Shown: positions 255 through 16,479, counted from the first letter of the stretch. The stretch: 16,479 bases of DNA from an uncultured archaeon (GCA_964342815.1 CAYFHS010000020.1:1-16479); one strand, 5' to 3'. The notes: generated from the sequence alone by a model not told the origin. Made by a program: numbers and translations.

Positions 255-327
255 AAAAAAACCATCTATTGTAAGTGAAAGATCAATTTTTCATCGTTTT
301 TCTGGAAAGTCATACTAGGCAATGATC

Positions 328-3300
328 TTAACTCATTAATTCTTTTCGCATCTCCAAATCATCTTCTTCGGAAATCTTGAAGCGCTTTTTAAAGCCTTGA
401 AGCATGACCTCCTCGTCAGTGGAGATTACCCCATCCGCCAGGGCTGCCTTAAGCATATCCTTGTAATGCTCGATATTCTCGAGCCGGTCCTTCATGGCTT
501 CCTTGAGTTTCTCAAACATTGAATCCGCACTGCTGAACCTTCTGACCTTATCCTTTTCCAGAGCCCGAAGGATTATCGAATCCATCTCGGCAGGAATTTC
601 TGGTCTAATTGCGCTAGGCGGTGCCGGGATATGGCTCACCAGGCGGCTCATAATGGTCACGGGGTCATCCCTCATGAAAGGATTTTCGCCAGTCAGCATC
701 TCGTAGAAGACGATCCCAAGCTGGAAAACATCTGTGGACCAGTCAATTTCACCGAAATTCTCGGGACTGATCTGCTCAGGCGAACTGTAGGCTAGAGTTC
801 CTTTTCCTCCCACAGTTTTCGAAACACTCTCCGAAGCCATGAACTTACCGATACCCCAGTCTGAGATCTTGGGCCTGCCGTCCTTGGTAAATAATATATT
901 TTCGGGTTTTATGTCGCGGTGCACCGATGCCATCCTGTGAGCATATGACATACCTGATAATATTTCCATTATGAGTGAGATCGCCTCATTTACCGGCATT
1001 TTACCCTTTTTCATTTTTTCGAGAAGGTTTCCCCCTTCCATATATTCAATAACCATGTAGGGAACGGGCCGTATGTCGCCCTTGTAGAAGGTCACCACGC
1101 CCCTGTGCTTCAGTTTCTTCCAGATATCCGACTCTTCCTTGAACTTTGTCAGGACGGAGGTATCTACAGTACTGTCCATGAACTTCGGAAGTTTGATTGC
1201 GTATTCCTTCCCTTCTGGTCCGATTGCCTTGTAAACGGTGGCAAATCCACCCGTGCCAAGTTTACTTACAAGTGTATAACCAGGGATGATGGTTTTAATC
1301 GTTGGAGAAATTACTTCGGATTCGTCGGGTGGAGCTTCTTCGGCTCCCCACACTTCCGGTTCTTCTTCAGGAGTACCCCAAACCTCAACATCCTCTTCCT
1401 CGTCAAATATTTCGGTTTCGGAACTTTCCAGCACTGGCCCGATGGATGGGCCGCCAGTTTCCTCATCCTCGTCGTCCTCTTCACCTTCGTCCTCATCCTC
1501 CTCCTCCTCGTCCCAATCATCCGTATCCCGGTGCTTGACAATTAGATATCTGACAATAAAAAGAAGGATAACCGCTACGACGATAACTATCCATATCCAC
1601 AGGTCCAATCCGAGAATGCCGCCTTTATCATCACTATCATCACCCGTACCGTCATTATCTTCATCATCTTCGATATCGTCATCGTCCGAAGGGACATCCT
1701 TGGGAGTGATGTTGATTGTGAGTGACAATGTCAGCGTTTCATTGGAATAACTGATGACGATGGGAAGTTGGTATTTCTTCACAGTCAGGGAAGAAGAATC
1801 CGTAATGGTACCGGTAACAATGATTGTGTCGCCGATGGGTATGAGAACGCTTCCCTTCATTTCGAGAACACCGGAGATGATTCCGGAAGGAGCAAACTCC
1901 ACCCTGGTCGGAATATTGCCGTTATTAGTCAATGTGATGTTAAATATTGCGCTTTGCCCCTGCTCGATATTTATTTCAGTGACAATCAACTCAGCTGTGA
2001 TATTGTAAATGGGAATGAAATCCTTTTGGACCGAAAATTTCCATGTCCCACTAATACATCGGCCCTGTATCGCACCGGCTACCGGTAGGATTTTCCAGTA
2101 ATAGGTTCTATTAAATGCGAGTTCAGTTACCTGATACCATTTTTTTACTGTAATATCTATCTCCTGAAGATTTTCTTTTTCCAGGCCGAAATAGATACTG
2201 TATATGATACCCTCGGTCTCGTTAAATACACTCCAGGTTAGGTTGGTGTATGTTGTATTAATAATGGATTGATCCGTTGGAGAGTGCAGATCAACCTCCG
2301 GAACGGAAACATCCAGGTCCACAGTGAAGTTCCATGTTCCGTTCTGGTACTGACCGGTAAGGATTCCGTCATTTGGGATTATGCACCAGTAGTATGTCTC
2401 TCCATCTACAAGGTCCGTTAGTGCAGTGGTGGTACCGGTAATGTTTTCTTTTTTCAGCGGCGGCGTGGAGTTGTTCCCGAAATACAGGTCGAACACGAGG
2501 TCTCCGGGTGCATTGTCTACGTCCACAGCCTTCCATTCAAGTGTCACCTCCGTTGATGGGACAACTCCTCCATTGATGGGTGAGACCAGTTGGGAAACCG
2601 GCGCGTCGTTCACACCGGTTACAGTGATATTGAACATGTTCGTTGGAGTTGATAGATCGTGCATGTTCGTGCAGTTCGCTATCACCTGTACAGTGCCGGT
2701 CCAGTTCTCTGCGAGATATGTAACATCAAGTTTGGAACCGTTAAGTTTGAGTGTAACATTTTCTTCGTCGGAGATGTATTGGATACCATAGGTGGACGGA
2801 GTCGTATCCGAGTAGATGTCGTTGAAATAAATTACCAGATCAGTTATATTCTCTTCAGGCGTATCCTCGGTGATGAGTATCTCGGAAGCTACGTTCTCAG
2901 AGAGTTCAGGGTGTACGATTTCGGGTTCAGGGATCTTTGTCCAGTTAACTGACCAATCGAAAAGAGTGGGTGTCTGTGTAGTGCTTGATTGCAGATAGGC
3001 TTTGAAATAGAGATTGGGATGACTTTTTGGACCAAGGATTGAAAGGTCGATTGTACCTTCACTTGTGTTGTTATATTCCTGGTAAAGAATATTACCTGTA
3101 CCAGCATCGAGGATAGAGATATTGAGGTATGTATTCTGAGAGACATCTCGATTAAAATGGAATTTATCCCAGGTTTGATCTTCAGGTAATGTTATGGTTT
3201 CGGAGTGGTGAATAGAATTGTTGTAATGATCCCTGCAATGGTCCTGAATTTCCGATAGAGTAAGAATGCGATCGTGTATGGCAACTTCGTCGATTGCGCC

Positions 3301-6300
3301 ATAAAAGGCAGCTCGGACAGCATCATTTTCGTGATAATCCCATGTGCCGCCGATTTCTAAAGGGGTTGATGAACCATCGAACGGTCCATTTGAATAACTT
3401 ACACTATCTCCCAATTGAATGCCATTTACATAAAAAGAGACTTTTTTATCATTTGTGTCCCTGACCACAGTAAAATGGTACCATTCACCGCTGTTAATAT
3501 TTGCTGCTTCCGTTGATTGCCTTGCTTCATTACTGCCACTTCCATATTCCCATAGGATGCTCAATTTTTTGGCAGGGGTGATGTAAAAGTAGTATAGAAT
3601 ATTTGTATGAGATGAACCATCAGTATTCCCTTTACCCTGTAGGATAAGAGAATTCTCTTCACTCAGTGCAACATATTTAGCCCAACATTCCAATGTTAAA
3701 TCGCCTGTGATCTGTAATGGTGGATGTGCGCCATAATTCACATAATCGTCAACACCATCGAACTCCAAGGCCCCTCCCCTCACTCCATTGGTCCAATTCT
3801 CCCCACCGTGAATTGTACCATCTATCCTGTTCCCGCTGGAATCAAGCGACATATTCCCCTCGCCTTCATCGAAATGCCACAATCCCACACAATCCACATT
3901 AGGTAAGACCTCGTTATCTCCAAGACGGGCGACTCCACCATAAAAAGAAATACCTGCCCTGTAGCTTCGGTGGATCTCCTCTAGAGAGCGGGCAATATTG
4001 GAGATGCGGACCTCATCAATTAAACCATTGAAAAATTTATTATTCCCCTGATATTTTCCAACAAAAAGAGAATTCGTGTTTGCTAATTCAGAATTAACAA
4101 TATCTTCACCATGTTCTTTAATTCCATTAACATAGATCTCAATTTTAGTGTTTGTTGCTATAGCAGTAATATGTGTCCATATCCCCAATGGTATTATTGA
4201 AGTGCTTCGAACTATCTCAGCTTCCCCTTCAACTCCCGTACCAACTTGAAATTTAATATATTTTCCATTATCAGTAAACAATAATCGATATCCATAAGCA
4301 AAGTGTAAATCTATATCTGCCTTATCCAAGATCCTTGATAATGCATTTCTTGAATTCATTTTGATCCAAGCTTCAATTGTAATTTCATTAATATTATCTA
4401 GATCATCTCTACTCCCACAATCGACATAATCATCCACCCCGTCGAACTGCAGCGCTTTCCCCTGCCCCCTCGGTCCCTCCGTCACATCGCATAACTGCGC
4501 CCGCCCGGAAGTATAACGCGATTGTATCTCCGAATACGTAAGGACCCGGGAATAAACGCCCACCTCGTCGATGGTTCCGTTGAAAGCCCGATCCAGGTTC
4601 TCACTGTTGCCAATTTGTAGATTTGAATCAATTTCTGAATCCAGTTTACCCGACGGTTGTCCACCAACAAAGGGACATTGAACACCATCAATATAGATAT
4701 TAAGGTCACTCCCGTTATAGGAGAATGCAACATGCTGCCAAGTGTTCAACTTGATGGTATCTTTTGCAGAGGCTAAAAACTCAAATTGATTTCCTATCTT
4801 CATACTGACGAATAGGGAATGATCCGGGCCACCGGGGCTGGCCGTATCATGGAGATACATGCCTAAAGATCCCTTATTTGTGATTCGTCCAAATCCATAG
4901 TTCCCATATGGACCCCAACTCCTTGGAAATATCCACGCTTCCATGCTGATCTCATCGGTAATATCGAGGCTTGGGTTGTTACCGCAGTCAATGTAATCAT
5001 CCTTACCGTCGAATATCAGAGCATCACCGTTTATTCCCCCTGAGGTCCACATAGGATCATTATCATCCACTCCGTTACTGCTCCCGAGCTGACCGTTATT
5101 ATCGTAATCGCTCTCGTCAGCAACATCCTGCCCCTCGCCTTCATCGAAATGCATCAGCAGCCTCGTATTACCATAATGAGTTCCGTCATTGTCTCCCACC
5201 ATATCTTTTGCCGACCCGTCATCGAAGTTCCAGTATGCCACAGTATTTTCATCGACAATAGAATGACTCGAGCTTTTTCCATCACCTGTGAAGCTGTCAC
5301 GCCACGTATTTTCCTTCACCCATTCAACACCCCAGGAATTCAGAGCGGGTGTGGCCATCTCATTGCCTGAAAAAAAGGCCTTGAGACGGATGGAATCAAC
5401 ATCAATATCGTTGAGATGTGCAAGGTCGATGTTGGATGGAGTGAGATTGAAATATCCAGGTATTACTCCATCGTCAGAGGTATCGATAACGGTTACTCTT
5501 ATGTCGGTATCGAATGGCTCATCTTTATTCAGAGCCAGCATATCCCATTTCATATTATAGGGAAGTGATATGGCTTTGGACGTTACGGATCCATATGTAG
5601 AGGATTCCGTCACATTCTCATGTAACCTTATTTCCGAAAGTTCAAGGGCCCTGTTGTAGAGGCGGACCTCATCGATGACGCCTTTGGAGTAAATGTTTCT
5701 ATAGGTTCTTCCACCGATTTGGATGGGTATGACGTCCTTAACTAAAGCAACTGATGAAGCTGTTTCGTTAACCAGTACTCCGTTGAGATATATCTTGAAT
5801 TTCGATCCGTCGTAAGTGGCTGCAATATGATACCATGTGTTCAAGGATAATTCCGTTTCTCCCCATAGATTATTCCCCCCCCCCCCAGCATTCCATGCGA
5901 ACCTGATCACCCTAGGATTTTCGTCGCTATTATTCGTTACAAGCAATTGCCATGGATATTTTGTGTTCCATCTATTGATAATATGGAATTCGTTCTCGAA
6001 ATCAGCAATCTGGATCCAGGCTTCGACACAAATTTCTGTTACATTGAACTCATCTGCCGATTCAACTTCAACAATGTCATCCACACCGTCGAACTCAAGT
6101 GCCCCTCCGCTTTTACCATCGGTCCAGTTCTCGCTCCCGTTTATTACCCCATGATTTGCATAGATGGAGTCATCCCTGGCAATAATTCCGTTACTTTCAT
6201 CGAATTTCCAATATCCGATTGGGCCGGAGTAGCTCAATTCTGCTGGGCCGCCCGTGATATCGATATTGTCCTTCTCTTGAATGCCATTCTCATCATCCAG

Positions 6301-6504
6301 ATCGTCGAACCAGCTACCGCCGAAATCGTCGTTCTCGGTATCGGCAGCCCGGATTTCCTTGCTCGTTCCAGGATTGTCTACCCCACGGCGTGAAATGCTT
6401 TCGATGTTTTCTGTTCTCGCGTTGTACTCATATACCCAGTATATTCCTGAAAACACCTGGAACAAGAACAGAAGGACTAAGGTAAATGCTACGAACCGTT
6501 TCAT
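328..6504 (-). CDS. Giant type-I membrane Ser/Thr protein kinase with extracellular LamG (concanavalin A-like) and Ig/FN3-like domains (~2058 aa)
   Basis: ATG at 6504 (MKRFVAFTLVLLFLFQVFSG, signal peptide-like) is preceded by AGGTTGGT; the track's TTG at 6516 is an alternative start. Four LamG-type units carry the motifs W/HxFDEG, ALxFDGxDD, EAWI, WxHxA and IDEV. These are followed by a cadherin-like unit (ITED...VNDAP), two FN3-like units (LxSP...LxW...TYYW), a CARDB-like unit (FNITLTNNGN), an Asp-rich linker and a TM helix at ~1537-1602 (LWIWIVIVVAVILLFIV). After an acidic linker comes the kinase at ~520-1278 with GTGGFATV, YAIK, FKEE, HRDIKPEN, DWG, YSSPEQ and DVFQLG, then a short helical tail. 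Confidence 0.93.
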   Translation of the reverse strand: MKRFVAFTLVLLFLFQVFSGIYWVYEYNARTENIESISRRGVDNPGTSKEIRAADTENDDFGGSWFDDLDDENGIQEKDNIDITGGPAELSYSGPIGYWKFDESNGIIARDDSIYANHGVINGSENWTDGKSGGALEFDGVDDIVEVESADEFNVTEICVEAWIQIADFENEFHIINRWNTKYPWQLLVTNNSDENPRVIRFAWNAGGGGNNLWGETELSLNTWYHIAATYDGSKFKIYLNGVLVNETASSVALVKDVIPIQIGGRTYRNIYSKGVIDEVRLYNRALELSEIRLHENVTESSTYGSVTSKAISLPYNMKWDMLALNKDEPFDTDIRVTVIDTSDDGVIPGYFNLTPSNIDLAHLNDIDVDSIRLKAFFSGNEMATPALNSWGVEWVKENTWRDSFTGDGKSSSHSIVDENTVAYWNFDDGSAKDMVGDNDGTHYGNTRLLMHFDEGEGQDVADESDYDNNGQLGSSNGVDDNDPMWTSGGINGDALIFDGKDDYIDCGNNPSLDITDEISMEAWIFPRSWGPYGNYGFGRITNKGSLGMYLHDTASPGGPDHSLFVSMKIGNQFEFLASAKDTIKLNTWQHVAFSYNGSDLNIYIDGVQCPFVGGQPSGKLDSEIDSNLQIGNSENLDRAFNGTIDEVGVYSRVLTYSEIQSRYTSGRAQLCDVTEGPRGQGKALQFDGVDDYVDCGSRDDLDNINEITIEAWIKMNSRNALSRILDKADIDLHFAYGYRLLFTDNGKYIKFQVGTGVEGEAEIVRSTSIIPLGIWTHITAIATNTKIEIYVNGIKEHGEDIVNSELANTNSLFVGKYQGNNKFFNGLIDEVRISNIARSLEEIHRSYRAGISFYGGVARLGDNEVLPNVDCVGLWHFDEGEGNMSLDSSGNRIDGTIHGGENWTNGVRGGALEFDGVDDYVNYGAHPPLQITGDLTLECWAKYVALSEENSLILQGKGNTDGSSHTNILYYFYITPAKKLSILWEYGSGSNEARQSTEAANINSGEWYHFTVVRDTNDKKVSFYVNGIQLGDSVSYSNGPFDGSSTPLEIGGTWDYHENDAVRAAFYGAIDEVAIHDRILTLSEIQDHCRDHYNNSIHHSETITLPEDQTWDKFHFNRDVSQNTYLNISILDAGTGNILYQEYNNTSEGTIDLSILGPKSHPNLYFKAYLQSSTTQTPTLFDWSVNWTKIPEPEIVHPELSENVASEILITEDTPEENITDLVIYFNDIYSDTTPSTYGIQYISDEENVTLKLNGSKLDVTYLAENWTGTVQVIANCTNMHDLSTPTNMFNITVTGVNDAPVSQLVSPINGGVVPSTEVTLEWKAVDVDNAPGDLVFDLYFGNNSTPPLKKENITGTTTALTDLVDGETYYWCIIPNDGILTGQYQNGTWNFTVDLDVSVPEVDLHSPTDQSIINTTYTNLTWSVFNETEGIIYSIYFGLEKENLQEIDITVKKWYQVTELAFNRTYYWKILPVAGAIQGRCISGTWKFSVQKDFIPIYNITAELIVTEINIEQGQSAIFNITLTNNGNIPTRVEFAPSGIISGVLEMKGSVLIPIGDTIIVTGTITDSSSLTVKKYQLPIVISYSNETLTLSLTINITPKDVPSDDDDIEDDEDNDGTGDDSDDKGGILGLDLWIWIVIVVAVILLFIVRYLIVKHRDTDDWDEEEEDEDEGEEDDEDEETGGPSIGPVLESSETEIFDEEEDVEVWGTPEEEPEVWGAEEAPPDESEVISPTIKTIIPGYTLVSKLGTGGFATVYKAIGPEGKEYAIKLPKFMDSTVDTSVLTKFKEESDIWKKLKHRGVVTFYKGDIRPVPYMVIEYMEGGNLLEKMKKGKMPVNEAISLIMEILSGMSYAHRMASVHRDIKPENILFTKDGRPKISDWGIGKFMASESVSKTVGGKGTLAYSSPEQISPENFGEIDWSTDVFQLGIVFYEMLTGENPFMRDDPVTIMSRLVSHIPAPPSAIRPEIPAEMDSIILRALEKDKVRRFSSADSMFEKLKEAMKDRLENIEHYKDMLKAALADGVISTDEEVMLQGFKKRFKISEEDDLEMRKELMS
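5875..5886 (-). repeat. G12 homopolymer (C12 on + strand) inside the kinase gene, encoding GGGG
   Basis: tattCCCCCCCCCCCCagca: 12 C counted directly. These are four consecutive GGG codons in the first LamG domain. Confidence 0.95.
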
Positions 6505-6526
6505 GTTACATACCAACCTGTAAGAT

Positions 6527-6577
6527 AATAATTGAATAAAACTGAAAAATCTTTAATAAGCTTTTTATTCAATTATT
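6527..6577. promoter_or_regulatory. Perfect 15-bp inverted repeat bracketing a TATA-like element upstream of the kinase gene
   Basis: aataattgaataaaa (6527-6541) and ttttattcaattatt (6563-6577) are exact reverse complements. The 21-nt spacer reads agcttattaaagatttttcag on the minus strand. Confidence 0.55.
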
Positions 6578-6641
6578 CAATTGATAATAAACAAAGATTA
6601 GTACGTATTTTTGTCAACTTAAATACCAGTTATCCACATTA

Positions 6642-6881
6642 TTAACCACCACCTACTGGAAGTGTTAAGGTCACATCATCATGGTTTTTTAAAAAAGTCC
6701 GGAGGCTCCCCTTTTTTCCATTGATTATAGGGATTATGTAACGGATGTGATCTTCATTGTAGTCCAATTTATTAAGAAGTGTAAGAAGAGAGCTGTTCTC
6801 TGGTAACTCTATTGTGAAATCATTATCATTATTCGGTCTTTTTAAAACTCCCGTAATTGAAACCTTTACAATGATGCTCAT
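6642..6881 (-). CDS. MoaD/ThiS-family ubiquitin-like (SAMP-like) sulfur carrier protein
   Basis: 79 aa with a beta-grasp-like pattern (IVKVSITG...IPIINGKK...LKNHDDVTLTLPVGGG) and a C-terminal diglycine. An AGGT RBS-like motif lies upstream. Confidence 0.85.
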   Translation of the reverse strand: MSIIVKVSITGVLKRPNNDNDFTIELPENSSLLTLLNKLDYNEDHIRYIIPIINGKKGSLRTFLKNHDDVTLTLPVGGG

Positions 6882-6908: not shown

Positions 6909-7154
6909 TCAACCTCCGGCGATAGGAGGAAGGAGTGCCAATTCATCACCGTTCTGAATTACTTCTTCGCCATGGGCATATACGTGGTTCAGGGAAATTA
7001 TGGTATATTTAATTGGTTTTTCCAGTTCCGGGTAATCCGCCAATAATCTTTCAATTATCTCGTCAATTTTGATACCTTTAGTGAATTCCATGTCCAACTC
7101 ATCCTGCCCAACGATCCTTCGCATGGAACCAAATAATTTCACCTTGATTTTCAT
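6909..7154 (-). CDS. moaD: MoaD/SAMP1-like ubiquitin-like sulfur carrier protein
   Basis: 81 aa: MKIKVKLFG...ISLNHVY...NGDELALLPPIAGG, the classic MoaD C-terminus (DExAxxPPxxGG). Confidence 0.9.
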   Translation of the reverse strand: MKIKVKLFGSMRRIVGQDELDMEFTKGIKIDEIIERLLADYPELEKPIKYTIISLNHVYAHGEEVIQNGDELALLPPIAGG

Positions 7155-7207: not shown

Positions 7208-8005
7208 TTATAAAATTTCATCCATACTCCCGCTCCTATATCCCCTAATGTCCAGTGTTACGTACTGGAATCCGATCTCTACCAATTTATCGCATACCCT
7301 TTCTCGGAATTTTTTTTCCATAAACTTTTTCATATCATCCTCATCCACTTCGATCCTTGCGATTGAGCCGTGACTCCTTACCCTTACCTGTTTTATACCA
7401 AGTGATTTTAAAAAATCTTCACCAAGCTCAATACGCTTCAATTTTTTCTCCGTGATCTTTTCGCCGTAAGGAATTCTCGATGACAAACAGGCTGAACTTG
7501 GTTTAGCCCATACTGACAATCCGATTTCCTTGGCAATTTCCCTGATATCATCTTTCGATAAATTCGCTTCCACAAGCGGATGCCAGATCCCAGCTTCATT
7601 TGTGGCCTTGATCCCCGGTCTGTGCTCAACGAAATCCGAGGTATTCAAACCGTCCGCGATACAAGAGATATTATCCTGGTCCGCAACTTGTTTTAGGAGT
7701 TCCACCTCTTCACGTTTACAATGATAACACCGGTCATTTGGATTATCCGTAAATAAATTATTGTCGAGAGCGGATGTCTTGACTATCAAGTGTTTTATTC
7801 CGATCTCTGCTGCAATTTTTCTGGAATCAGTCAACTCGGCTCCTGCGAGAGTTTCGGAATCCAGAGTCGCTGCTACCGCTTTATCTCCCAACTCCTCATA
7901 TGCGATCCTAGCCACCAGAGCACTGTCCAGACCTCCGGAAAAAGATACGAGCACACTTTCCCGGGATGCCATTAATTCATGGAGCTGATCCAATTTATTA
8001 ACCAT
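7208..8005 (-). CDS. larE: ATP-dependent sulfur transferase LarE (PP-loop), CxxC-C cluster-binding type
   Basis: 265 aa with PP-loop SFSGGLDS, N...DRCYHCK, DGLNxSD...RPG, W.KPSSACLSSRIPYG, RVRSHG..ARIEV and GYRSGSMDE. GGTGA RBS upstream. Confidence 0.93.
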   Translation of the reverse strand: MVNKLDQLHELMASRESVLVSFSGGLDSALVARIAYEELGDKAVAATLDSETLAGAELTDSRKIAAEIGIKHLIVKTSALDNNLFTDNPNDRCYHCKREEVELLKQVADQDNISCIADGLNTSDFVEHRPGIKATNEAGIWHPLVEANLSKDDIREIAKEIGLSVWAKPSSACLSSRIPYGEKITEKKLKRIELGEDFLKSLGIKQVRVRSHGSIARIEVDEDDMKKFMEKKFRERVCDKLVEIGFQYVTLDIRGYRSGSMDEIL

Positions 8006-8177: not shown

Positions 8178-8405
8178 TTATACCGAGATTACTTCCTTTA
8201 CTTCCGGGAGTTCCTCTTTTATTGCCTTTTGAATGAAATTGACCAAAGTTAACTGCCGCATGGGGCAACCCGCACAACCCCCGCCCATTTTAACCTTTAC
8301 AACTCCATCCTCAACGGCTATAAGATCCACCTTCCCGCCGTCCATGGCCAGAGCGGGGTTAATTCGATTATCGATAACTTCTTTCACCTTGTCCATCATG
8401 CTCAT
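8178..8405 (-). CDS. NifU C-terminal-domain (Nfu-type) Fe-S cluster carrier protein
   Basis: 75 aa: INPALAMDGGKVDL...VKVKMGGGCAGCPM...IQKAIKEELPEVKEV, with the conserved CxxC. AAGGTGA RBS upstream. Confidence 0.92.
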   Translation of the reverse strand: MSMMDKVKEVIDNRINPALAMDGGKVDLIAVEDGVVKVKMGGGCAGCPMRQLTLVNFIQKAIKEELPEVKEVISV

Positions 8406-8937: not shown

Positions 8938-10776
8938 TTAAAGATCCGAGAGCAAGAACATTAATATCGCCAGCCCGAAAAACAGAACTGCGGTCATGAT
9001 CTTAATAAGACCCACCCTTTTCATGAAGATTGATTCGAGTTTTTCAGAAGTTACGCCGTGGTAAACTGCGAGAAAGACGCCTACCAGGGGAAGAATGAAC
9101 ATTGAGTTATACAAAACGAGATAAAAAAATGCCTTTGCCTGAAATCCCGGCTCACCCAATATATATACGATCGTCGGCAGATAAACCTGCCCGGTACACA
9201 TAAATTCCAGTGCCGAGATTACGGCGCCTGTAATAAATGCCAATCCCGCCAATCTCCTTGATTTTACATGCTTCCGGATGATCCTGTTTGTAAGTTTCTT
9301 AATACTCTTGGGTAGTTTCAGGGTTGTTTCCTCCCCCTTTCCCTTTTTTATCTTGTAGAAATCAATAAGGCTGTAGATCCCGAGAATTAGAGCAATCACA
9401 CCTGTAATTGGATACATCAGGGCCGAGATAGTCGATATCCCTTTTATGTAATTCAACCATTTATAGATGCCAATTCCCAGTAAAAGGTATGTGATGAAAA
9501 CACCCAGGGTATATGATATACCGGTCAGTAAAATAACTTTTTTTTCCCTCTTTCGTATGACCAGATAACTCACAAGGAGCATCAGTGTCACAAAGGCACA
9601 TGGATTTACCCCATCGATGAGTCCTGCTCCGATTACTACGAAAATATTGAAATCGATCGAAGGATCGTATGGTTCAGCCGAAGGGTAAGGACTGCCATGG
9701 GGATATTTTTTTATTTCATCCTCAAAATCTGCCTTTAACTCTGAAACGCTGGTGAAAGCTCGGTTCCCGATGAAAACTCCCAACGTTCCCCACTCACGTT
9801 TGGGTACATTGTATCTGTTGAAATATGATTGTTTCTTTTTTTCATTCTTTCTGTTTGAGGTATCGAATTCATCAATTACGAGTTGGTCATATTTGCGGCT
9901 CATTTCTCTAAGGAATTCCCGTGCTTGATGGCAAGTTCCGCATGTGGGGCTGTAGAATATAAGAACATATATTGCATCATCCTCAGGTGGCGGAGTTGGT
10001 TGACATTCCACCTTTTTAATAGGTGTATTCCTCCCTGCATATATTTTCAACTTTTCATTGAGAGCATCAGAGCCTATTTCATCATCAACAAGTGAATGAT
10101 TTTCATTTCCGATGAAAACCGCCACGTTAGCACTGCTCTTGGAGCTGTTATAAACCTTGAGGAATTCGTCCAGAAGACATGAGTTTGTTAAACTGTTAAA
10201 TGTATCGAAGAAGTTATGGCGAACATGAGATGTATTTAAGGATTGAATGAGTTCGAGAGCGGTTTGGCCGGACGAGGTGATGAATGGTGTGGACGAATTG
10301 TAAAAAAAAGCGATCTCCGTTGACCAGGTCACGTTCCATTCGGGCCAAAGCGATGCTCCGGTATCCTGGTATTCCGCTATTAAGGCGGCACTGCTTTCAT
10401 AATCCACATTTTCATACGATATATAATGATCAGCTATGAAAAGAAAGGGGTAGTCGTATCGTTCACGGTCAGGTACGTTATAAGCATTGAAAAACTGTTT
10501 AGCAAGGTTCTTTTTTTCGGAAAAAGTGACATCTAACCAAGTAACCTCGAGATAAGTGTAATTTTTTTCCAGTGCCGGGATTATATCATCCATTGCTTTA
10601 ATGCTGCAGGGGCAATCGGGATCATAGAAAAAGGCCATTTCGACAACAGCCCCATTTGTTGTATCAGTTCGGTTGCTGCCTGACGAGAATATGCTTGATC
10701 CGGTGATCATCCCCAATGTCATGACGGCTATTACCATAAGGTTAAGGAGGCGCGGAAGATGTTCATTTACTTTCAT
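8938..10776 (-). CDS. Membrane protein with three thioredoxin/glutaredoxin-like domains and a C-terminal CcdA/DsbD-like transmembrane domain
   Basis: 612 aa with GGAGG RBS. N-terminal hydrophobic helix, then repeats starting FFYDPDCPCS, FFYNSST and IFYSPTCGTCH. The polytopic C-terminus carries the two CcdA-type cysteines (GLIDGVNPCAF and LEFMCTGQVYLP). Confidence 0.88.
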   Translation of the reverse strand: MKVNEHLPRLLNLMVIAVMTLGMITGSSIFSSGSNRTDTTNGAVVEMAFFYDPDCPCSIKAMDDIIPALEKNYTYLEVTWLDVTFSEKKNLAKQFFNAYNVPDRERYDYPFLFIADHYISYENVDYESSAALIAEYQDTGASLWPEWNVTWSTEIAFFYNSSTPFITSSGQTALELIQSLNTSHVRHNFFDTFNSLTNSCLLDEFLKVYNSSKSSANVAVFIGNENHSLVDDEIGSDALNEKLKIYAGRNTPIKKVECQPTPPPEDDAIYVLIFYSPTCGTCHQAREFLREMSRKYDQLVIDEFDTSNRKNEKKKQSYFNRYNVPKREWGTLGVFIGNRAFTSVSELKADFEDEIKKYPHGSPYPSAEPYDPSIDFNIFVVIGAGLIDGVNPCAFVTLMLLVSYLVIRKREKKVILLTGISYTLGVFITYLLLGIGIYKWLNYIKGISTISALMYPITGVIALILGIYSLIDFYKIKKGKGEETTLKLPKSIKKLTNRIIRKHVKSRRLAGLAFITGAVISALEFMCTGQVYLPTIVYILGEPGFQAKAFFYLVLYNSMFILPLVGVFLAVYHGVTSEKLESIFMKRVGLIKIMTAVLFFGLAILMFLLSDL

Positions 10777-11262: not shown

Positions 11263-11290
11263 TGTGATTAATCAACTCCGTGGCGATGGA

Positions 11291-13954
11291 ATGAAAAAGT
11301 TTACTCTTGTCTGTTTTTTTTTGCTGATAATCCCAATTATAATCCTGCCCGAAGAGTTTCACTTTTCACTAGGAGATGCTGCCGGAGATGATGTCGATCC
11401 CATGGCCGTTAACGTCACCACGGCTAAGCATATGGTTGATTCGATTTCGTATCTCGTCATTCTGGATGTTCAGGAAACGCCCGATTATCTTGCAGGGCAT
11501 CTGCGGAACGCTCTCTCAATACCCTTGTCTGAACTGGAAGAAAGATTGGGAGACTTGAATCCGAATAGAGAGACGCTGATTTACGGAAAAACCGGTTATG
11601 GAAGCTCCGAGGCAAGAACGATCCTTTTAGATAACGGTTTTATCAATCTCTATGATATGTGCTGTGGGATCCGGGGATGGTCGGATGCAGGTTATCCTGT
11701 TTATAAAAAATATCCCTCTGTACGAAGCGCCGTACTCAGCGTACCGGAAGGAGATTCCGTTTTCCTTTCATCGGGTGTTTATGTAGGTGATTTTACCATA
11801 AACAAGACCATTTCTCTGCTCGGGGAAAACCAAACTTCAACAATTATCGAGGGTTCTGGCAGTGGAGTATCTATAAATGTCACTTCGGATCGTACCTTAG
11901 TGTCGTCCCTGACCGTTCGTAATGGCGAAATTGGTATCCTGTCTTTCGCTACCAGTGGAACTGAGATCTCCAACTGCACGTTTTCCGGTCTTGAGACTGC
12001 AGTATCTCTTTTATCGTCCAGATCCATCAAACTACGTGATAATACGATGTCCGATTGCAGCTTGTACATGGAAGGAAAATCATTGGAACATTGGGACACC
12101 CATTCCATTGATGGGACGAACCTGGTAAATGGAAAACCGCTTTATTACGCGACGAAATTATCAAACACGGAGGTCCTGGTTGACGCGAGTCTCATCATAC
12201 TTGTCAACTGCACCAACGTCACCGTGTCCGGGCGAGATTTTAATTCGAACAGCATTGGTATTACCCTGGCTTATTCAAGCTATAGCCACATTAGGAACAA
12301 CACATTCTATTCCAACGGTATAAGCGGGATTTCAATACACGAATCGCATGATAACATGATAATCGATAATACATTCGAATCGAATGGAGATGCGGGCATC
12401 AATTTAGCGGATAGCTCGCTAAATACGTTAAATCGAAATCTTATAAAGGATAATGGTGGTTATGGTGTTTCTCTATTACGTGGAACCGATAATCGAGTCT
12501 TTAATAACACGTTCATCAGGAACAACGGCGGGATGGTTCAGGCGGAAGATCGAAGTGATAATTGTTCGTGGGATGACGGATCGTTGGGAAATTACTGGTC
12601 AGATTATAAAATGAAATATCCCGGTGCTGCGAACGATAGCAGGGTCTGGGATACTCCCTATTTGATCCGTGGTACCCCCGAAATTTCGGACAGGTATCCT
12701 GCTGTTACCCCTACCGTAGCATTATCCAGTTACCCGGTATCCGATGCCGGACCCGACATTAATGTTATCCAGCATACCCTGGTGAGATTTGATGGCTCCT
12801 ATAGTTTCGACAAGGGGCAAATCACGAATTATACTTGGACTTTTCAATATGATGGCAAACCGGTGATTTTGAACGGAATAATATCTAGCTTCATTTTTCA
12901 TCTTGCTGGTATATACACGGTAACATTGAATGTAACTAATAGTCTGGGTCTCAGTGACCATGATGTGATAATCCTGACAGTTAATGACATTGAACCTCCC
13001 ACGGCAGACGCGGGAGAGGATCGAACAATCGACCAGTTCACATTGGTATTTTTCCTGGGGAAGAACTGTTCCGATAACATCTTGGTGGTGAACTACACGT
13101 GGTCGTTTAAATATGGGATGGACACCATCGTTCTGCATGGTTATAACGCTTCATTCAGATTCCAGGCGGCTGGTCGGTATAATGTGACCCTAAAGATATT
13201 CGATGCCAGCGCTAATTGGAATATCGATCAGATAGAGGTACTCGTAAGGGATATCACTCCTCCAGTGGCTAGTGCAGGAGATGATCAAAATCTTCCTCAA
13301 GGATCCCCTTTTATGTTCAACGCGGTAGAAAGCCACGATGATTCCGGGATACTCAACTACAGTTGGTCCTTTCGTGATGATGATTCGGAAATTCTCCTTT
13401 TTGGGATCCAATCTAGCTATACATTCAATCAACCCGGTGAATATCTGGTGATACTCAATGTAACGGATGTTGCAGGTCTTACGGGAACGGATATAATAAA
13501 TATTTCTGTGATTGACATTTATCCGCCGGAGGCAATTGCTGGTCCCGATATCAACATTCGCCAGCATGATAGCGTGGTTTTTAACGGCAGTGGTAGCAGC
13601 GATAATCAGGGGATCAGCAATTTCAGCTGGTCATTTGCCCATGGAGGTCGGAATATAACTCTTTTCGGTGGATCCGTGTCATACACCTTCGATCATCCCG
13701 GTAATTATACGGTCGTTATGAAGGTCAAAGATGATCAGGGACTGCAGGATGTGGATTTTTTGTACGTAAATGTTGAAAGGATTAATGAAAACGGGTCCGA
13801 TAATGGATGGTTTTACGGTGTCCTCGGCATAATCATTCTTTTTTCCGCACTAATGGTTTTGATATTAACTGTGAGGAGAGGTAAATCCTCAAATTCCATG
13901 GGGGATAAAAACGGGGAACAAGAATCTGAAGAAATGTCTATAAATGGAAAATAA
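11291..13954 (+). CDS. Surface protein: signal peptide, rhodanese-like domain, NosD/CASH-type parallel beta-helix, four PKD domains, C-terminal TM anchor
   Basis: Likely ATG at 11291 (MKKFTLVCFFLLIIPIIIL); the track's GTG at 11264 is an alternative start. Rhodanese signature: ILDVQ...YLAGHLRNALSIP...NGFINLY...GIRGWSDAGYPV. Beta-helix repeats: N.I.NNTF..N...GI.L, with GNYWSDY. Four PKD units begin PVSDAGPD, PTADAGED, PVASAGDD and PEAIAGPD. TM: WFYGVLGIIILFSALMVLILTV followed by RRGK. Confidence 0.9.
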   Translation: MKKFTLVCFFLLIIPIIILPEEFHFSLGDAAGDDVDPMAVNVTTAKHMVDSISYLVILDVQETPDYLAGHLRNALSIPLSELEERLGDLNPNRETLIYGKTGYGSSEARTILLDNGFINLYDMCCGIRGWSDAGYPVYKKYPSVRSAVLSVPEGDSVFLSSGVYVGDFTINKTISLLGENQTSTIIEGSGSGVSINVTSDRTLVSSLTVRNGEIGILSFATSGTEISNCTFSGLETAVSLLSSRSIKLRDNTMSDCSLYMEGKSLEHWDTHSIDGTNLVNGKPLYYATKLSNTEVLVDASLIILVNCTNVTVSGRDFNSNSIGITLAYSSYSHIRNNTFYSNGISGISIHESHDNMIIDNTFESNGDAGINLADSSLNTLNRNLIKDNGGYGVSLLRGTDNRVFNNTFIRNNGGMVQAEDRSDNCSWDDGSLGNYWSDYKMKYPGAANDSRVWDTPYLIRGTPEISDRYPAVTPTVALSSYPVSDAGPDINVIQHTLVRFDGSYSFDKGQITNYTWTFQYDGKPVILNGIISSFIFHLAGIYTVTLNVTNSLGLSDHDVIILTVNDIEPPTADAGEDRTIDQFTLVFFLGKNCSDNILVVNYTWSFKYGMDTIVLHGYNASFRFQAAGRYNVTLKIFDASANWNIDQIEVLVRDITPPVASAGDDQNLPQGSPFMFNAVESHDDSGILNYSWSFRDDDSEILLFGIQSSYTFNQPGEYLVILNVTDVAGLTGTDIINISVIDIYPPEAIAGPDINIRQHDSVVFNGSGSSDNQGISNFSWSFAHGGRNITLFGGSVSYTFDHPGNYTVVMKVKDDQGLQDVDFLYVNVERINENGSDNGWFYGVLGIIILFSALMVLILTVRRGKSSNSMGDKNGEQESEEMSINGK

Positions 13955-14098
13955 AATTGAGCGAGGATTGGCAACACAAAAATAGAAGGATTATTTGATA
14001 AAAGATAAAACCAATAACCTCAATGATATGAAAAATAGGATGATCGATCTAGGAAAAACAGTATTTATACAATGGGAAAAATTTGATGGGTGATAAAA

Positions 14099-16479
14099 AT
14101 GAGGATATTAAAGTACTGCATCGTGCTGATATTGATAATAATGCTACACACTGGGATGTTCATGGGATTGTTGGATAATTCCACAGGCGGGTATGTTCCC
14201 CCACCAGAAAGAAAGCGGGGTGATGCTCCCCCGTCATTAGTAGTGGATAACACGCCTTCTACGGCAAACACGGGTGAGATGTTCAATTTCTCTGCGAATT
14301 TTTCCGATGATTTTTCCGTAACGGATGTTTATGTGAATTATACTTACGACAACAATTCGTACTATAACATTTCTATGAACAATGTCTTTAATGAAACATG
14401 GAACGCCACAATAACAATAAATCAAACTGCACTTACACTGGATTATTACTTTATATATGTGGATAATGCCACAAACACCAATTCTTCACAGCTAACACGA
14501 ATAACCATCTTGGATACGATCCCACCCGTATCTGAAGCGGGACCCGATATCGAGGTGCCGCAATATGGTGCTCTCTGGTTTGATGGCAGCGGAAGCGAGG
14601 ATAATCGGGGTATAATAAATTATACATGGTTCTGGTGGTGCCACTTTTGCCATATATTCAAATATGCATATGGTGAAATTGTAAATATGTCCTGGCTTAC
14701 GGACATGGTTGATAATATCACAATGAATCTAACCGTTCGGGATGCAGCAGGAAATGAAGATCTCGATTCAATGGTTATTTTGATCCTCGACCGTGAAACT
14801 CCCATAGCCGAAATCGGAGATGACCTGTATATCGTGGACCAGTTCCAGCTTGTAAATTTCAATGCTTACAATAGTTGGGATAATGTCGAAATAACGAATT
14901 ATACCTGGATATTTGATGAGAATAATACCGATATATACCTCTACGGGATCTCTGTGAATTATTCGTTTAGTTTTCACGGTGAATATATCGTTGCGTTGAG
15001 GGTCACCGATGGAGAGGGGAACAGCGGGCCCGGCAGCTGGGATTCGATAAGAGTTATAGTTCTCGATATCTCTCCGCCCATAGCTAATGCAGGAGAGGAT
15101 GTCGTAATCGACCAGTTCATGACAGTGGTATTTAACGGCAGCGGGAGTACGGAAATGGTCGATTATGTCTGGAATTTTACTCATAATCGAGTTATGCAGT
15201 ATTTAACTGGGGTTTCACCGGAATACCATTTCTACAGCGCGGGAGTATATCTGGTGACATTGAATGTAAGCGATTGGCGGGACAATTGGTGTCTGGATAC
15301 CATGACGGTGACGGTTCTGGACATTGAAGATCCTGTTGCCAAGGCCGGGGAGGACCTGGAGATACTTTTGGGTGAATTCTTCGTACTGAACGCCAGTAAC
15401 AGCTGGGATATGGTGTCTGTGGTTAACTATTCCTGGAGTTTTTATTACAACGGTACGGATCATGTACTATATGGAGAAGAATTGACATTCGCATTCGAAC
15501 TGATGGGTGTTTATAATATAACCCTTCGTGTTGAAGACGAAAGGGGAAATTACGGGACTGATGTTTGCACGGTAACCACAATCGACCGTAAAGATCCACA
15601 GGTAAATGCCGGATCGGATATAGTGATCAATGAAGGGGGAACTGCAGTTCTCGATGGAAGTGGAACAACCGATCATTCGCCCATTGCAAATTACAGCTGG
15701 TCTTTTACATACTACGGTAACGAAAAAAAGTTATACGGAGTGAAGGTCTCCTTCGGCTTCGATATTCCGGGAGTTTATAACGTCTTTTTGCTTGTAAAAG
15801 ATATTTGGGGAAATGTTGGTTGGGATAATTTGCTGATCAGAGTGATGGACACGACACCACCTACCGCCTATGCGGGGGATAATATATTAACTACTGAAGG
15901 AAAGACCGTCATCCTGAACGGCAGCGGTGAAGATAACGTTGGAATTTCGAATTACAGCTGGAGATTTGAATACAACGGAGAGCTTCATCAATTATTTGGA
16001 AAATTGGTGCCATTTACGTTTGAGCTTGCCGGAAACTATACTATCTACTTGAAGGTCCGAGACGATGATGGTAACGTGGGAAACGACTCTATATGGGTGA
16101 ATGTTACTCCTCTTTTGTCGGATGATGATCCCGATGATGACGATAATGATGACGACAGCGATACTGGTGAAAGTTCCTCTGATCTCGACAAAATCAAGAT
16201 ATTGATCTCGGTGGCCGTGATTGTCGTATTTATTGTAGTATATTTGATCATTATAATATCGAAGAGGCGGAAGGAGCAGCAGTCATCATTGACACTTGAT
16301 GGTATTGAGGATGAAAGTATTGGTGAAACGGTGGATGAAGGTATTGAGGAAACGGTTGGTGAAAGTATTGAGGAAACGGTGGATGAAGGTATTGAGGAAA
16401 CGGTGGATGAAGGTATTGAGGAAACGGTGGATGAAAGTATTGAGGAAACGGTTGATGAAAGTTTTGAGGATACGGTTGA
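14099..16479 (+). CDS. Surface protein with six PKD domains, TM anchor and repetitive acidic cytoplasmic tail (3'-truncated; absent from the ORF track because it has no stop in the window)
   Basis: GGGTGAT RBS at 14088-14094, ATG at 14099. Manual translation is open to the window end: MRILKYCIVLILIIMLHTGMFMGLL (signal), an Ig-like unit, then PKD units PVSEAGPD, PIAEIGDD, PIANAGED, PVAKAGED, PQVNAGSD and PTAYAGDN. These are followed by DDDPDDDDNDDD, TM ILISVAVIVVFIVVYLIIIIS, KRRK and the repeats. Confidence 0.9.
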   Translation, partial: MRILKYCIVLILIIMLHTGMFMGLLDNSTGGYVPPPERKRGDAPPSLVVDNTPSTANTGEMFNFSANFSDDFSVTDVYVNYTYDNNSYYNISMNNVFNETWNATITINQTALTLDYYFIYVDNATNTNSSQLTRITILDTIPPVSEAGPDIEVPQYGALWFDGSGSEDNRGIINYTWFWWCHFCHIFKYAYGEIVNMSWLTDMVDNITMNLTVRDAAGNEDLDSMVILILDRETPIAEIGDDLYIVDQFQLVNFNAYNSWDNVEITNYTWIFDENNTDIYLYGISVNYSFSFHGEYIVALRVTDGEGNSGPGSWDSIRVIVLDISPPIANAGEDVVIDQFMTVVFNGSGSTEMVDYVWNFTHNRVMQYLTGVSPEYHFYSAGVYLVTLNVSDWRDNWCLDTMTVTVLDIEDPVAKAGEDLEILLGEFFVLNASNSWDMVSVVNYSWSFYYNGTDHVLYGEELTFAFELMGVYNITLRVEDERGNYGTDVCTVTTIDRKDPQVNAGSDIVINEGGTAVLDGSGTTDHSPIANYSWSFTYYGNEKKLYGVKVSFGFDIPGVYNVFLLVKDIWGNVGWDNLLIRVMDTTPPTAYAGDNILTTEGKTVILNGSGEDNVGISNYSWRFEYNGELHQLFGKLVPFTFELAGNYTIYLKVRDDDGNVGNDSIWVNVTPLLSDDDPDDDDNDDDSDTGESSSDLDKIKILISVAVIVVFIVVYLIIIISKRRKEQQSSLTLDGIEDESIGETVDEGIEETVGESIEETVDEGIEETVDEGIEETVDESIEETVDESFEDTV
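16310..16479 (+). repeat. Coding 24-bp tandem repeat (at least 7 copies) encoding DE(G/S)IEETV
   Basis: Units start at 16310, 16334, 16358, 16382, 16406, 16430 and 16454, with consensus gatgaaRgtattgaggaaacggtK. They are in frame with the ATG at 14099 and continue off the window edge. Confidence 0.95.

Follow-up and report, generated by a model that had tools for sequence, protein, structure and literature searches.

A predicted type-I receptor-like Ser/Thr kinase with a LamG ectodomain in an uncultured marine archaeon, and the family to which it belongs

The gene and its domains

We analyzed a 16,479-nucleotide stretch of DNA (the window) that forms the first 16.5 kb of contig 20 (C20:1-16479; other contigs of the source genome are cited in the same form) of a genome from an uncultured archaeon (GCA_964342815.1; 4.35 Mb, 116 contigs, 89% complete). 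Its minus strand carries a gene at 328..6504, comprising 2,058 codons and a TAA stop at 328-330, whose product is probably a very large receptor-like Ser/Thr kinase. The open frame runs uninterrupted for ~6.2 kb from 6516 to 328. An in-frame TTG at 6516 was rejected as the start, as the ATG at 6504 yields a 2,058-aa product identical to public protein P0002 and agrees with a typical leader bearing MKR and a hydrophobic core; the protein P0001 begins 4 residues upstream of this product. The archaeal origin given in the preliminary description of this DNA is supported by close-relative loci in metagenome-assembled genomes (MAGs) of a Thermoplasmatota archaeon (ETNP2) and of uncultured archaea. 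All features of the protein discussed below lie on the minus strand.

Since the gene comes from a MAG and lies near a contig end, and since an assembler might in principle be confused by LamG paralogues of repetitive sequence, we considered whether a surface-protein gene had been mis-joined to a kinase gene, or a pseudogene read through. Several findings speak against an artefact of this kind. Not only is the frame unbroken, but the exact 2,058-aa protein is encoded on 4 contigs, one of which has the same neighbouring genes and belongs to ERZ907987, a Tara Oceans assembly of a single sample. A Logan contig of 5,767 nt, which came from a different assembler though possibly from the source sample itself, aligns to 264-5886 with a single mismatch and bridges the kinase, the transmembrane (TM) helix and most of the ectodomain. 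It is the only one of the listed contigs to bridge the TM helix: in three other seawater samples the gene was covered by zero-mismatch pieces of 200-440 nt, with no listed piece crossing the TM region. Zero-mismatch pieces of both the kinase and parts of the ectodomain were likewise present in seawater metagenomes of other studies. In addition, the LamG-TM-kinase order is kept in at least 4 relatives from other metagenomes, namely P0003 (71% identical overall and 93% in the kinase), P0004 (55% identical), P0005 (2,432 aa) and P0008 (1,860 aa). The preliminary description had named a chimeric join of ectodomain and kinase as the finding that would undo it; in view of the 4 contigs, the Logan contig across the join and the relatives with the same layout, no such join exists. 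The gene is real, and the artefact reading, to which we attach practically no probability, is already effectively refuted.

A Kyte-Doolittle scan identified only two hydrophobic segments in the protein. The first is a signal-type segment at residues 1-25 (6430..6504), consisting of MKR and a hydrophobic core; paralogues and relatives start with a similar N-terminus. The second, at residues about 1631-1655 (1540..1614; hydropathy peak 3.05), is predicted to form a single TM helix. It is preceded by a predicted extracellular acidic linker just outside the membrane (residues 1605-1630; 1615..1692; assigned from hydropathy and sequence) and is followed by R/K/H/R. Basic residues therefore lie on the predicted cytoplasmic side of both segments, as expected from the positive-inside rule. 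All 35 N-X-S/T sequons and all 11 Cys residues precede the TM helix. The ectodomain holds 35 sequons compared to 19.1 expected from composition-preserving shuffles, 0 of 2,000 of which reached 35, an excess that fits an exported, N-glycosylated ectodomain. Hydropathy, charge and sequon distribution agree on a type-I layout of signal, ectodomain, one TM helix and kinase, and the ectodomain-TM-kinase order first proposed for this gene is borne out by the positions of the TM helix and of the kinase domain (residues 1743-1998). The ectodomain is predicted to face outward and the kinase inward, whether the leader is cleaved or retained as an uncleaved signal anchor.

The ectodomain begins with an acidic linker that has no Pfam match and to which relatives match weakly (residues 26-95; 6220..6429). 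Pfam then assigned four Laminin_G_3 (PF13385) stretches (E 3e-102), in accord with the four LamG/concanavalin A (ConA)-like domains originally noted; self-comparison placed their cores at about 139-293, 499-667, 688-853 and 916-1087. LamG domain 1, a ConA-like jelly roll, spans residues about 100-297 (5614..6207; Pfam, self-comparison and AlphaFold2 model m2bdd319cd470). Domains 2 (about 430-670; 4495..5217), 3 (about 685-855; 3940..4452; the best Pfam stretch) and 4 (about 870-1090; 3235..3897) were assigned from Pfam and self-comparison. Between domains 1 and 2 lies a spacer beta-sandwich, A1 (residues 300-425; 5230..5607), that has no Pfam match and was recognized as an internal repeat (E 1e-11). 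It recurs at residues 1095-1192, the repeated unit being ~100 residues long (300-400 and 1100-1190 by self-comparison), is collinear in at least 14 relatives and forms a strongly conserved block in alignment A2.

The remainder of the ectodomain is a stalk of five beta-sandwich domains (residues 1095-1604; 1693..3222), defined from AlphaFold2 model mf88e4e1af0bd and from repeats. In order, these are spacer A2, a cadherin-like domain ending in VNDAP, two FN3-like repeats and a membrane-proximal Ig-like domain. Pfam returned no match in residues 1095-1625. The model of these residues, built on a 14-sequence alignment (A1), reached a mean predicted local distance difference test (pLDDT) score of 84.9 and consists of five consecutive all-beta sandwich domains, whose best PDB fold matches by Foldseek were cadherin ectodomains, titin Ig strings and RPTP Ig/FN3 ectodomains. 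Model and matches together support the Ig/FN3-like stalk of the preliminary description.

The N-terminal half of the clostridial neurotoxin receptor-binding (Hc) domain is a ConA-like jelly roll. Hc domains were the best Foldseek matches of a model of LamG domain 1 and the first spacer, which was of moderate confidence (pLDDT 70.2). We did not accept a toxin relationship from these matches (14-16% identity, high root-mean-square deviation), and the model assigns LamG domain 1 to the jelly-roll fold class and to nothing beyond a fold. The profile match and the jelly-roll fold agree with membership of the Laminin_G_3 superfamily at the level of fold. The Pfam scan at E <= 0.01 returned Laminin_G_1/2/3 and weak sialidase-type lectin modules, and no legume-lectin family. 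Thus, the earlier term lectin-like holds for the fold and not for a legume-lectin type. The ConA-like superfamily includes glucanases, and weak sub-threshold Pfam matches to a trans-sialidase C-terminal domain, a sialidase N-terminal lectin domain and a 3-keto-disaccharide hydrolase led us to consider a surface-tethered enzyme (a ConA-like glycoside hydrolase, lyase or sialidase-type enzyme) for which the kinase reports substrate turnover. However, each of these weak matches either concerns a lectin-like module without catalytic function or scores under or barely over the cut-off, and no stretch passes alone. The strong matches are to Laminin_G_3, which is typically non-catalytic, and the Pfam scan identified no catalytic domain across the ~1,600 ectodomain residues. 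We regard such an enzyme as extremely improbable.

On the cytoplasmic side, the TM helix is followed by a juxtamembrane linker (residues 1656-1740; 1285..1539) that is 45% Asp/Glu, carries a repeated EVWG motif and is conserved in the closest relatives only. The Hanks-type Ser/Thr kinase domain (residues 1743-1998; 511..1278) was assigned from Pfam, alignment and motifs. Pkinase (PF00069) matched residues 1743-1994 (1747-1998 in P0001) with an E value of 6e-44 and 150.8 bits compared to a cut-off of 31.7, covering model positions 1-256 of 263. Each of the catalytic motifs listed in the preliminary description is present: the Gly loop GTGGFATV (residues 1750-1757; 1234-1257), Lys1771 in AIK (within 1183-1203), the HRD motif H1862-R-D1864 (898-921), D1882-W-G, with DWG for DFG (853-861), and SPE (residues 1908-1910; within 775-786). 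An alphaC Glu is also present, in FKEES. In an alignment of 30 relatives with 74% mean column identity, the catalytic Lys, the alphaC Glu, HRD, DWG and the PE of the APE motif were invariant. The activation loop is Ser/Thr-rich and strongly conserved in the family, and DWG replaces DFG family-wide. Based on these residues, the kinase is probably active.

A C-terminal tail (residues 1999-2058; 331..510) with the motif AL.DG.IS..E..ML is conserved in relatives and is common to 37 family rows of the collected set, nearly all of them giant receptor-type proteins. TerB (PF05099) matched the tail with an E value of 0.0037 and 18.0 bits, which is under the cut-off of 24.4, and we treat this as a resemblance of motif and not as a TerB-like domain. 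A homodimer prediction for two copies of the kinase plus tail (alignment A3) scored 0.00, with controls not run, and gives no evidence either way. A search of the ESM Atlas with residues 1095-2058 returned only generic bacterial kinase clusters, all with scores < 0.9.

Relation to known kinases, and the family in related genomes

The closest solved structures to the kinase domain were Stk1 of S. aureus (4eqm, 4e-43) and PknB of M. tuberculosis (about 4e-38). The best eukaryotic kinases (AMPK, EGFR, B-Raf and ROCK) followed at about 1e-24, and none of the top 60 structure matches was an RLK/Pelle (IRAK-type) kinase. Likewise, the NCBIfam model NF033483 (PknB_PASTA_kin) matched with an E value of 1e-67 over model positions 9-280, that is, over the kinase only, with 229.4 bits compared to a cut-off of 450, and Pfam found no PASTA repeats in the protein. 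We did not assign the protein to the Stk1/PknB PASTA family, given the sub-cut-off score, the missing PASTA repeats and a kinase that follows the TM helix rather than standing at the N-terminus. Nor did we assign it to the plant L-type lectin receptor-like kinases (LecRLKs): the type-I topology is shared, while the ectodomain and the kinase clade are not. Judged from these comparisons, the kinase is a prokaryotic PknB/Stk1-like RD kinase in the opposite membrane orientation, and its eukaryote-like layout therefore reflects convergence and not kinship. Similarity to plant L-type lectin receptor-like kinases (RLKs) and to TGF-beta receptors, which was noted at the outset, consequently stands for the layout and falls for descent.

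In an exhaustive HMMER search of 1.84 billion cluster representatives, the best 150 matches comprised about 75 single-domain relatives at least 46% identical to the query, the rest being multi-kinase proteins at ~26-40%. Orientation was examined in a search for relatives beyond the source genome. In 26 of 26 distinct proteins among the close relatives (kinase at least 46% identical), the kinase was C-terminal to the TM helix. In contrast, it was at or near the N-terminus in 44 of 44 distant long kinases from the same search (~30% identical, and largely bacterial by name). These counts bear out the contrast with bacterial kinase order drawn in the preliminary description.

Bacterial membrane Hanks-type kinases with extracellular sensors are well known, and PknB-type RD kinases are activated through dimerisation and activation-loop phosphorylation. 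With PknB, PrkC and Stk1, to which its kinase domain is nearest, the archaeal protein shares an RD kinase with a Ser/Thr-rich activation loop and a single-pass architecture with an extracellular sensor, and activation by dimerisation and autophosphorylation is presumed by analogy. It differs from them in that the PknB kinase is N-terminal whereas the kinase studied here is C-terminal to an N-terminal ectodomain of ~1,600 aa, in its lack of PASTA repeats, in DWG for DFG, in the extra conserved tail and in the acidic linker. A bacterial LamG kinase (P0046, annotated by JGI as 'serine/threonine protein kinase') also combines a Hanks kinase, one TM helix and extracellular LamG. However, its kinase is N-terminal (56-300) and is followed by the TM helix (~328) and then LamG, which is the classical bacterial orientation, and the kinase is only ~29% identical. 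Within archaea, membrane-bound Hanks kinases are already known: those of the Sulfolobales are of eukaryotic protein kinase (ePK) type, some are membrane-bound, and they operate with FHA-domain partners in signalling networks (PMC5007285). The present protein is likewise archaeal and ePK-type, and is set apart by description, in that no comparably large extracellular sensor is described for the Sulfolobales kinases in the membrane, receptor and extracellular passages of that review (PMC5007285). Across kingdoms, a survey of transmembrane kinases found that two-TM histidine kinases dominate prokaryotic repertoires (PMC10463195).

The source genome encodes 21 open reading frames (ORFs) with this type of kinase (22 matches by Pfam), at least 9 of which have a signal, a large ectodomain, one TM helix and a C-terminal kinase. 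By Pfam, their ectodomains are of several kinds: LamG in two kinases on C49 and C53 in addition to the four-LamG protein described here, PKD in C5:58796, C20:63128 and C5:120256, PKD and MAM in C20:54680 (2,750 aa), a WD40 propeller on C42 and a Kelch propeller on C8. Distribution is narrow. Of 301 Thermoplasmatota genomes sampled, 6 had kinase matches at E <= 1e-60. All 6 belong to the GTDB class of the source genome, which is small and holds only 37 species representatives. In its own GTDB family, 3 of 4 genomes had 16-23 matches to the kinase.

A quick maximum-likelihood tree of 95 family kinase domains and 5 bacterial outgroups, with support from the Shimodaira-Hasegawa-like approximate likelihood ratio test (SH-aLRT) only, separated the family from the outgroups with a value of 100. 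Giant receptors with the C-terminal tail formed a subclade in which ectodomains of the LamG, PKD and beta-helix kinds were interleaved; P0002, P0003 and P0004 formed a LamG clade (98) beside PKD-bearing members. This interleaving indicates that ectodomains have been exchanged on a conserved kinase module. Taken together, the sequence comparisons suggest a kinase family that is restricted to a few related genomes and was built by ectodomain shuffling onto one kinase. The preliminary description had located the unusual part in the size and lectin-like nature of this one ectodomain, which does not hold within the lineage, as the same genome has 3 LamG kinases, at least 9 receptor-type kinases and 39 ORFs with the LamG ectodomain. 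What is notable is the family and not the single gene.

Some paralogues are degenerate. HRD is replaced by HRH in C5:120256-122787, by HRN with loss of the VAIK Lys in C48:117-1808 and C33:7760-9520, and by HGN in C3:90791-92401, making these four candidate receptor or membrane pseudokinases. The family thus appears to contain pseudokinases, whereas the protein described here is intact, and the loss of catalytic residues in same-genome paralogues suggests that the intact kinases are under selection. We also noted runs of such genes. Two receptor-type kinases, C20:54680-62932 (2,750 aa, PKD and MAM) and C20:63128-68044 (1,638 aa, PKD), stand in tandem 38 kb past the window, and contig C15 of another genome (G008) has four or five giant receptor-type kinase genes in a row. 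Both runs have the appearance of arrays produced by tandem duplication.

The LamG ectodomain itself is more widespread than the kinase. Counted at E <= 1e-10, the 39 ORFs of the source genome that carry it include a kinase in 3 cases and none in the other 36. In most of them, the N-terminus is of signal type and a single TM helix is present, with 140-540 residues on its cytoplasmic side. In the kinase-less giants the order of the cassette is collinear with that described above: LamG, spacer, LamG(s), spacer, cadherin-like, two FN3-like, Ig-like, TM. Examples are C25:49074-55019, C1:288748-293916, C5:18191-22405 and C7:72499-78537, the tails being among loci L039-L058. These tails vary. Two winged-helix DNA-binding domains occur in L053 (HTH_24, E 8e-22) and likewise in P0037, and a LamG ectodomain joined to a double winged-helix tail describes a membrane-tethered transcription factor. 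Matches to zf-RING_2 passed the cut-off of 27.3 bits in L045 (33.4 bits) and L049 (29.5 bits) and were weaker in four others. A weak DnaJ match, zinc ribbons and Pro-rich tails were also found, and many tails had no Pfam match, including a conserved domain of no known type that follows a Pro-rich linker. Compared to the kinase, then, paralogues such as P0037, P0007, C25:49074-55019 and C5:18191-22405 have the same collinear cassette and single TM helix, and differ in an output of two winged helix-turn-helix domains, a RING-like finger, a Pro-rich tail or the conserved domain just mentioned. One extracellular module joined through one helix to kinase, DNA-binding and RING-like outputs is the pattern of a signal input, and it is the main argument for a receptor over an adhesin only.

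Proposed function

We consider it likely that the protein serves this uncultured marine Thermoplasmatota archaeon as a receptor-like Ser/Thr kinase at the cell surface, with a single membrane pass and type-I topology. In the mechanism we propose, the Sec-type N-terminus would export the ~1,600-residue ectodomain, which is probably N-glycosylated, and the four ConA-fold LamG modules would be held off the membrane by the five-domain Ig/cadherin/FN3-like stalk, with the one TM helix and the acidic linker joining the ectodomain to the cytoplasmic PknB-like RD kinase. A multivalent extracellular ligand, such as a surface glycan, a polymer or the envelope of another cell, may bind the LamG heads and cluster the receptors. 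By analogy with PknB, clustered kinases would then trans-autophosphorylate the conserved Ser/Thr-rich activation loop and subsequently phosphorylate cytoplasmic targets, which might in turn be read by FHA proteins. The architecture, the topology signals, the intact motifs and the structure of the family are shown by the sequence analysis, while the ligand class, the activation by clustering and the substrates are inferred. In related proteins, the LamG ectodomain would serve as a reusable sensor cassette coupled to other outputs. The source genome has two FHA genes, on contigs C8 and C9, so readers of phospho-Thr are available; one lies directly downstream of the Kelch-type receptor kinase. 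The two form a compact pair on one strand, the kinase at C8:38689-41601 (-) and the FHA match immediately after it at C8:38207-38362 (L034).

Several points weigh against a receptor. Laminin_G_3 points to no ligand, this generic jelly roll being found as well in surface proteins whose role is purely adhesive or structural, and with 36 of the 39 LamG-ectodomain ORFs lacking a kinase, the ectodomain may be primarily an adhesin. Topology and leader type rest on hydropathy, charge and sequon distribution rather than on a dedicated predictor, and the absence of cytoplasmic sequons (0 compared to 0.74 expected of this Asn-poor part) is not significant alone. No RNA run was listed as containing this stretch. 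Synteny is not conserved either: P0004 is flanked by MMPL transporters and a response regulator and P0005 by an AAA ATPase, contexts that differ from the ThiS/PP-loop genes of the window, and no partner or substrate is suggested. Finally, PF13672 detected no PP2C_2-type phosphatase in the 89%-complete genome, other phosphatase families not having been searched.

One rival reading is an adhesin or envelope scaffold: the ectodomain would attach to particles, polymers or cells, and the kinase would be merely membrane-tethered and regulated from inside. Many of the kinase-less proteins bear only Pro-rich or unrecognised tails, the best fold matches of the stalk are adhesion molecules such as cadherins, and LamG-like proteins of other uncultured archaea have been read as host- or matrix-interaction proteins (PMC5498576). 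Still, the connection of the same cassette through one TM helix to kinase, winged-helix and RING-like outputs is hard to explain for a pure adhesin, and adhesion and signalling are not mutually exclusive. We therefore think a scaffold without a sensing role unlikely.

A role in surveillance was also weighed, in which the diversified ectodomains detect virus attachment or envelope damage and the kinase triggers defence or dormancy, a mode of action that has been proposed for defence kinases encoded by a single gene. The kinase region matches the PADLOC models PD-T4-6 (E 1e-65) and mad6 (2e-62) and the NCBIfam model MADS6 (2e-39), and the family is diversified, confined to few related genomes and inclusive of pseudokinases, traits that are frequent in families engaged in host-virus conflict. 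However, these matches cover only the generic Hanks core and are no better than that to the PknB-type NF033483; the MADS6 model (NF047741) scored 135.8 bits compared to a cut-off of 460, again in the kinase core only. We judged the PADLOC matches (PD-T4-6, mad6 and others) to be generic kinase similarity. No meaningful PADLOC match was found in the ectodomain parts, and defence genes were not seen next to the gene in the window or next to its relatives P0004 and P0005. An antiviral sensor is thus, in our estimation, highly unlikely.

Returning to the receptor kinase, its closest parallel in layout is found in plant LecRLKs and other RLKs. Both have a signal peptide, a ConA-fold ectodomain, one TM helix and a cytoplasmic Ser/Thr kinase, and both belong to repertoires with ectodomains shuffled onto one kinase clade, pseudokinase members and kinase-less paralogues of receptor-like-protein (RLP) type. 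They differ in that the archaeal ectodomain is Laminin_G_3, the kinase is nearer to bacterial PknB and the host is an archaeon. Tentatively, and with doubt slightly outweighing confidence, we propose that one family-level lineage of marine Thermoplasmatota independently evolved a eukaryote-style receptor system, with dozens of type-I proteins per genome, interchangeable ectodomains (LamG, PKD, beta-helix and propeller cassettes) and interchangeable outputs (active kinases, pseudokinases, RING-type fingers and winged-helix domains), in which the LamG kinase is activated by ligand-induced clustering and trans-phosphorylation. If true, this would be a prokaryotic equivalent, arrived at by convergence, of the RLK/RLP repertoire, and would lend itself naturally to studies of the origins of receptor-kinase signalling. 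The kinase has no specific relationship to eukaryotic RLKs and hence no direct bearing on eukaryogenesis.

To our knowledge, characterised archaeal Ser/Thr signalling consists almost entirely of a few Sulfolobus and haloarchaeal kinases. The membrane and receptor passages of one review do not describe a large extracellular sensor on an archaeal Ser/Thr kinase (PMC5007285). In our literature searches, whose coverage is incomplete and which are no proof of absence, we did not find archaeal LamG-ectodomain or type-I receptor Ser/Thr kinases described, nor a type-I orientation as the rule of a whole kinase clade, nor an expansion by shuffling of ectodomains and outputs. Thus, membrane Hanks kinases as such are known, whereas the large archaeal LamG/Ig ectodomain, the clade-wide type-I orientation and the shuffling of ectodomains and outputs were not found described. 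The family would show that an archaeon can give receptor kinases the 'eukaryotic' orientation and modular ectodomains of very large size, and that the same ectodomain cassette is wired to different outputs; it would be a clean case of the receptor-kinase layout being reached convergently from a PknB-like kinase. Its members are also testable candidates for sensors of the environment or of cell contact in marine archaea that are abundant and uncultured, and they offer defined constructs for biochemistry, namely the kinase plus tail and single LamG domains.

Neighbouring genes and regulatory sequence

Upstream of the kinase gene and on the same strand lie two ThiS/SAMP-like genes and a PP-loop ATPase. 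The former, directly upstream, are tandem small beta-grasp genes (6642-6881 and 6909-7154, both -) of 81 and 79 aa that both end in Gly-Gly; one matches ThiS (E 7e-13), and the pair share 24% identity (E 2e-6). Next to them are the PP-loop ATPase (7208-8005, -; QueC/ThiI/NAD-synthase-like) and a 75-aa NifU-like gene (about 8178-8405, -). From its gene content, this cluster looks like a SAMP/ThiS-type sulfur-carrier or ubiquitin-like modifier module, and there may be a connection between it and the RING-like receptor tails encoded in the same genome.

The intergenic region upstream of the kinase gene (6505..6641, -) is AT-rich. About 45-55 nt ahead of the ATG it includes a TATA-like box, TTATTAAA, and, read by eye, could be a candidate archaeal promoter. 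A sigma-70 promoter scan returned 21 sites compared to 16.2 expected; this is a bacterial model and is uninformative for an archaeon. At the other end of the gene, the stop codon is followed on the minus strand by a stretch rich in T. The only terminator-like hairpin near the gene end, at 206-236, was scored for the plus strand; it is strong, GC-rich and 13 bp long, with runs of A and of T on its flanks. This hairpin separates the stop of the kinase gene (328) from a plus-strand ORF that runs toward it and ends near 200, and may act as a bidirectional terminator.

Farther along the window, a 612-aa ORF (8938-10776, -) has only a marginal glutaredoxin/thioredoxin-like match around residues 268-313. 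Two plus-strand genes encode surface-type proteins, one of 896 aa (11264-13954) with a rhodanese domain, a NosD-type right-handed beta-helix and four PKD domains, and one of at least 796 aa (14090-16477, running off the window) with five PKD domains. Domains of the same types serve as ectodomains in the kinase paralogues.

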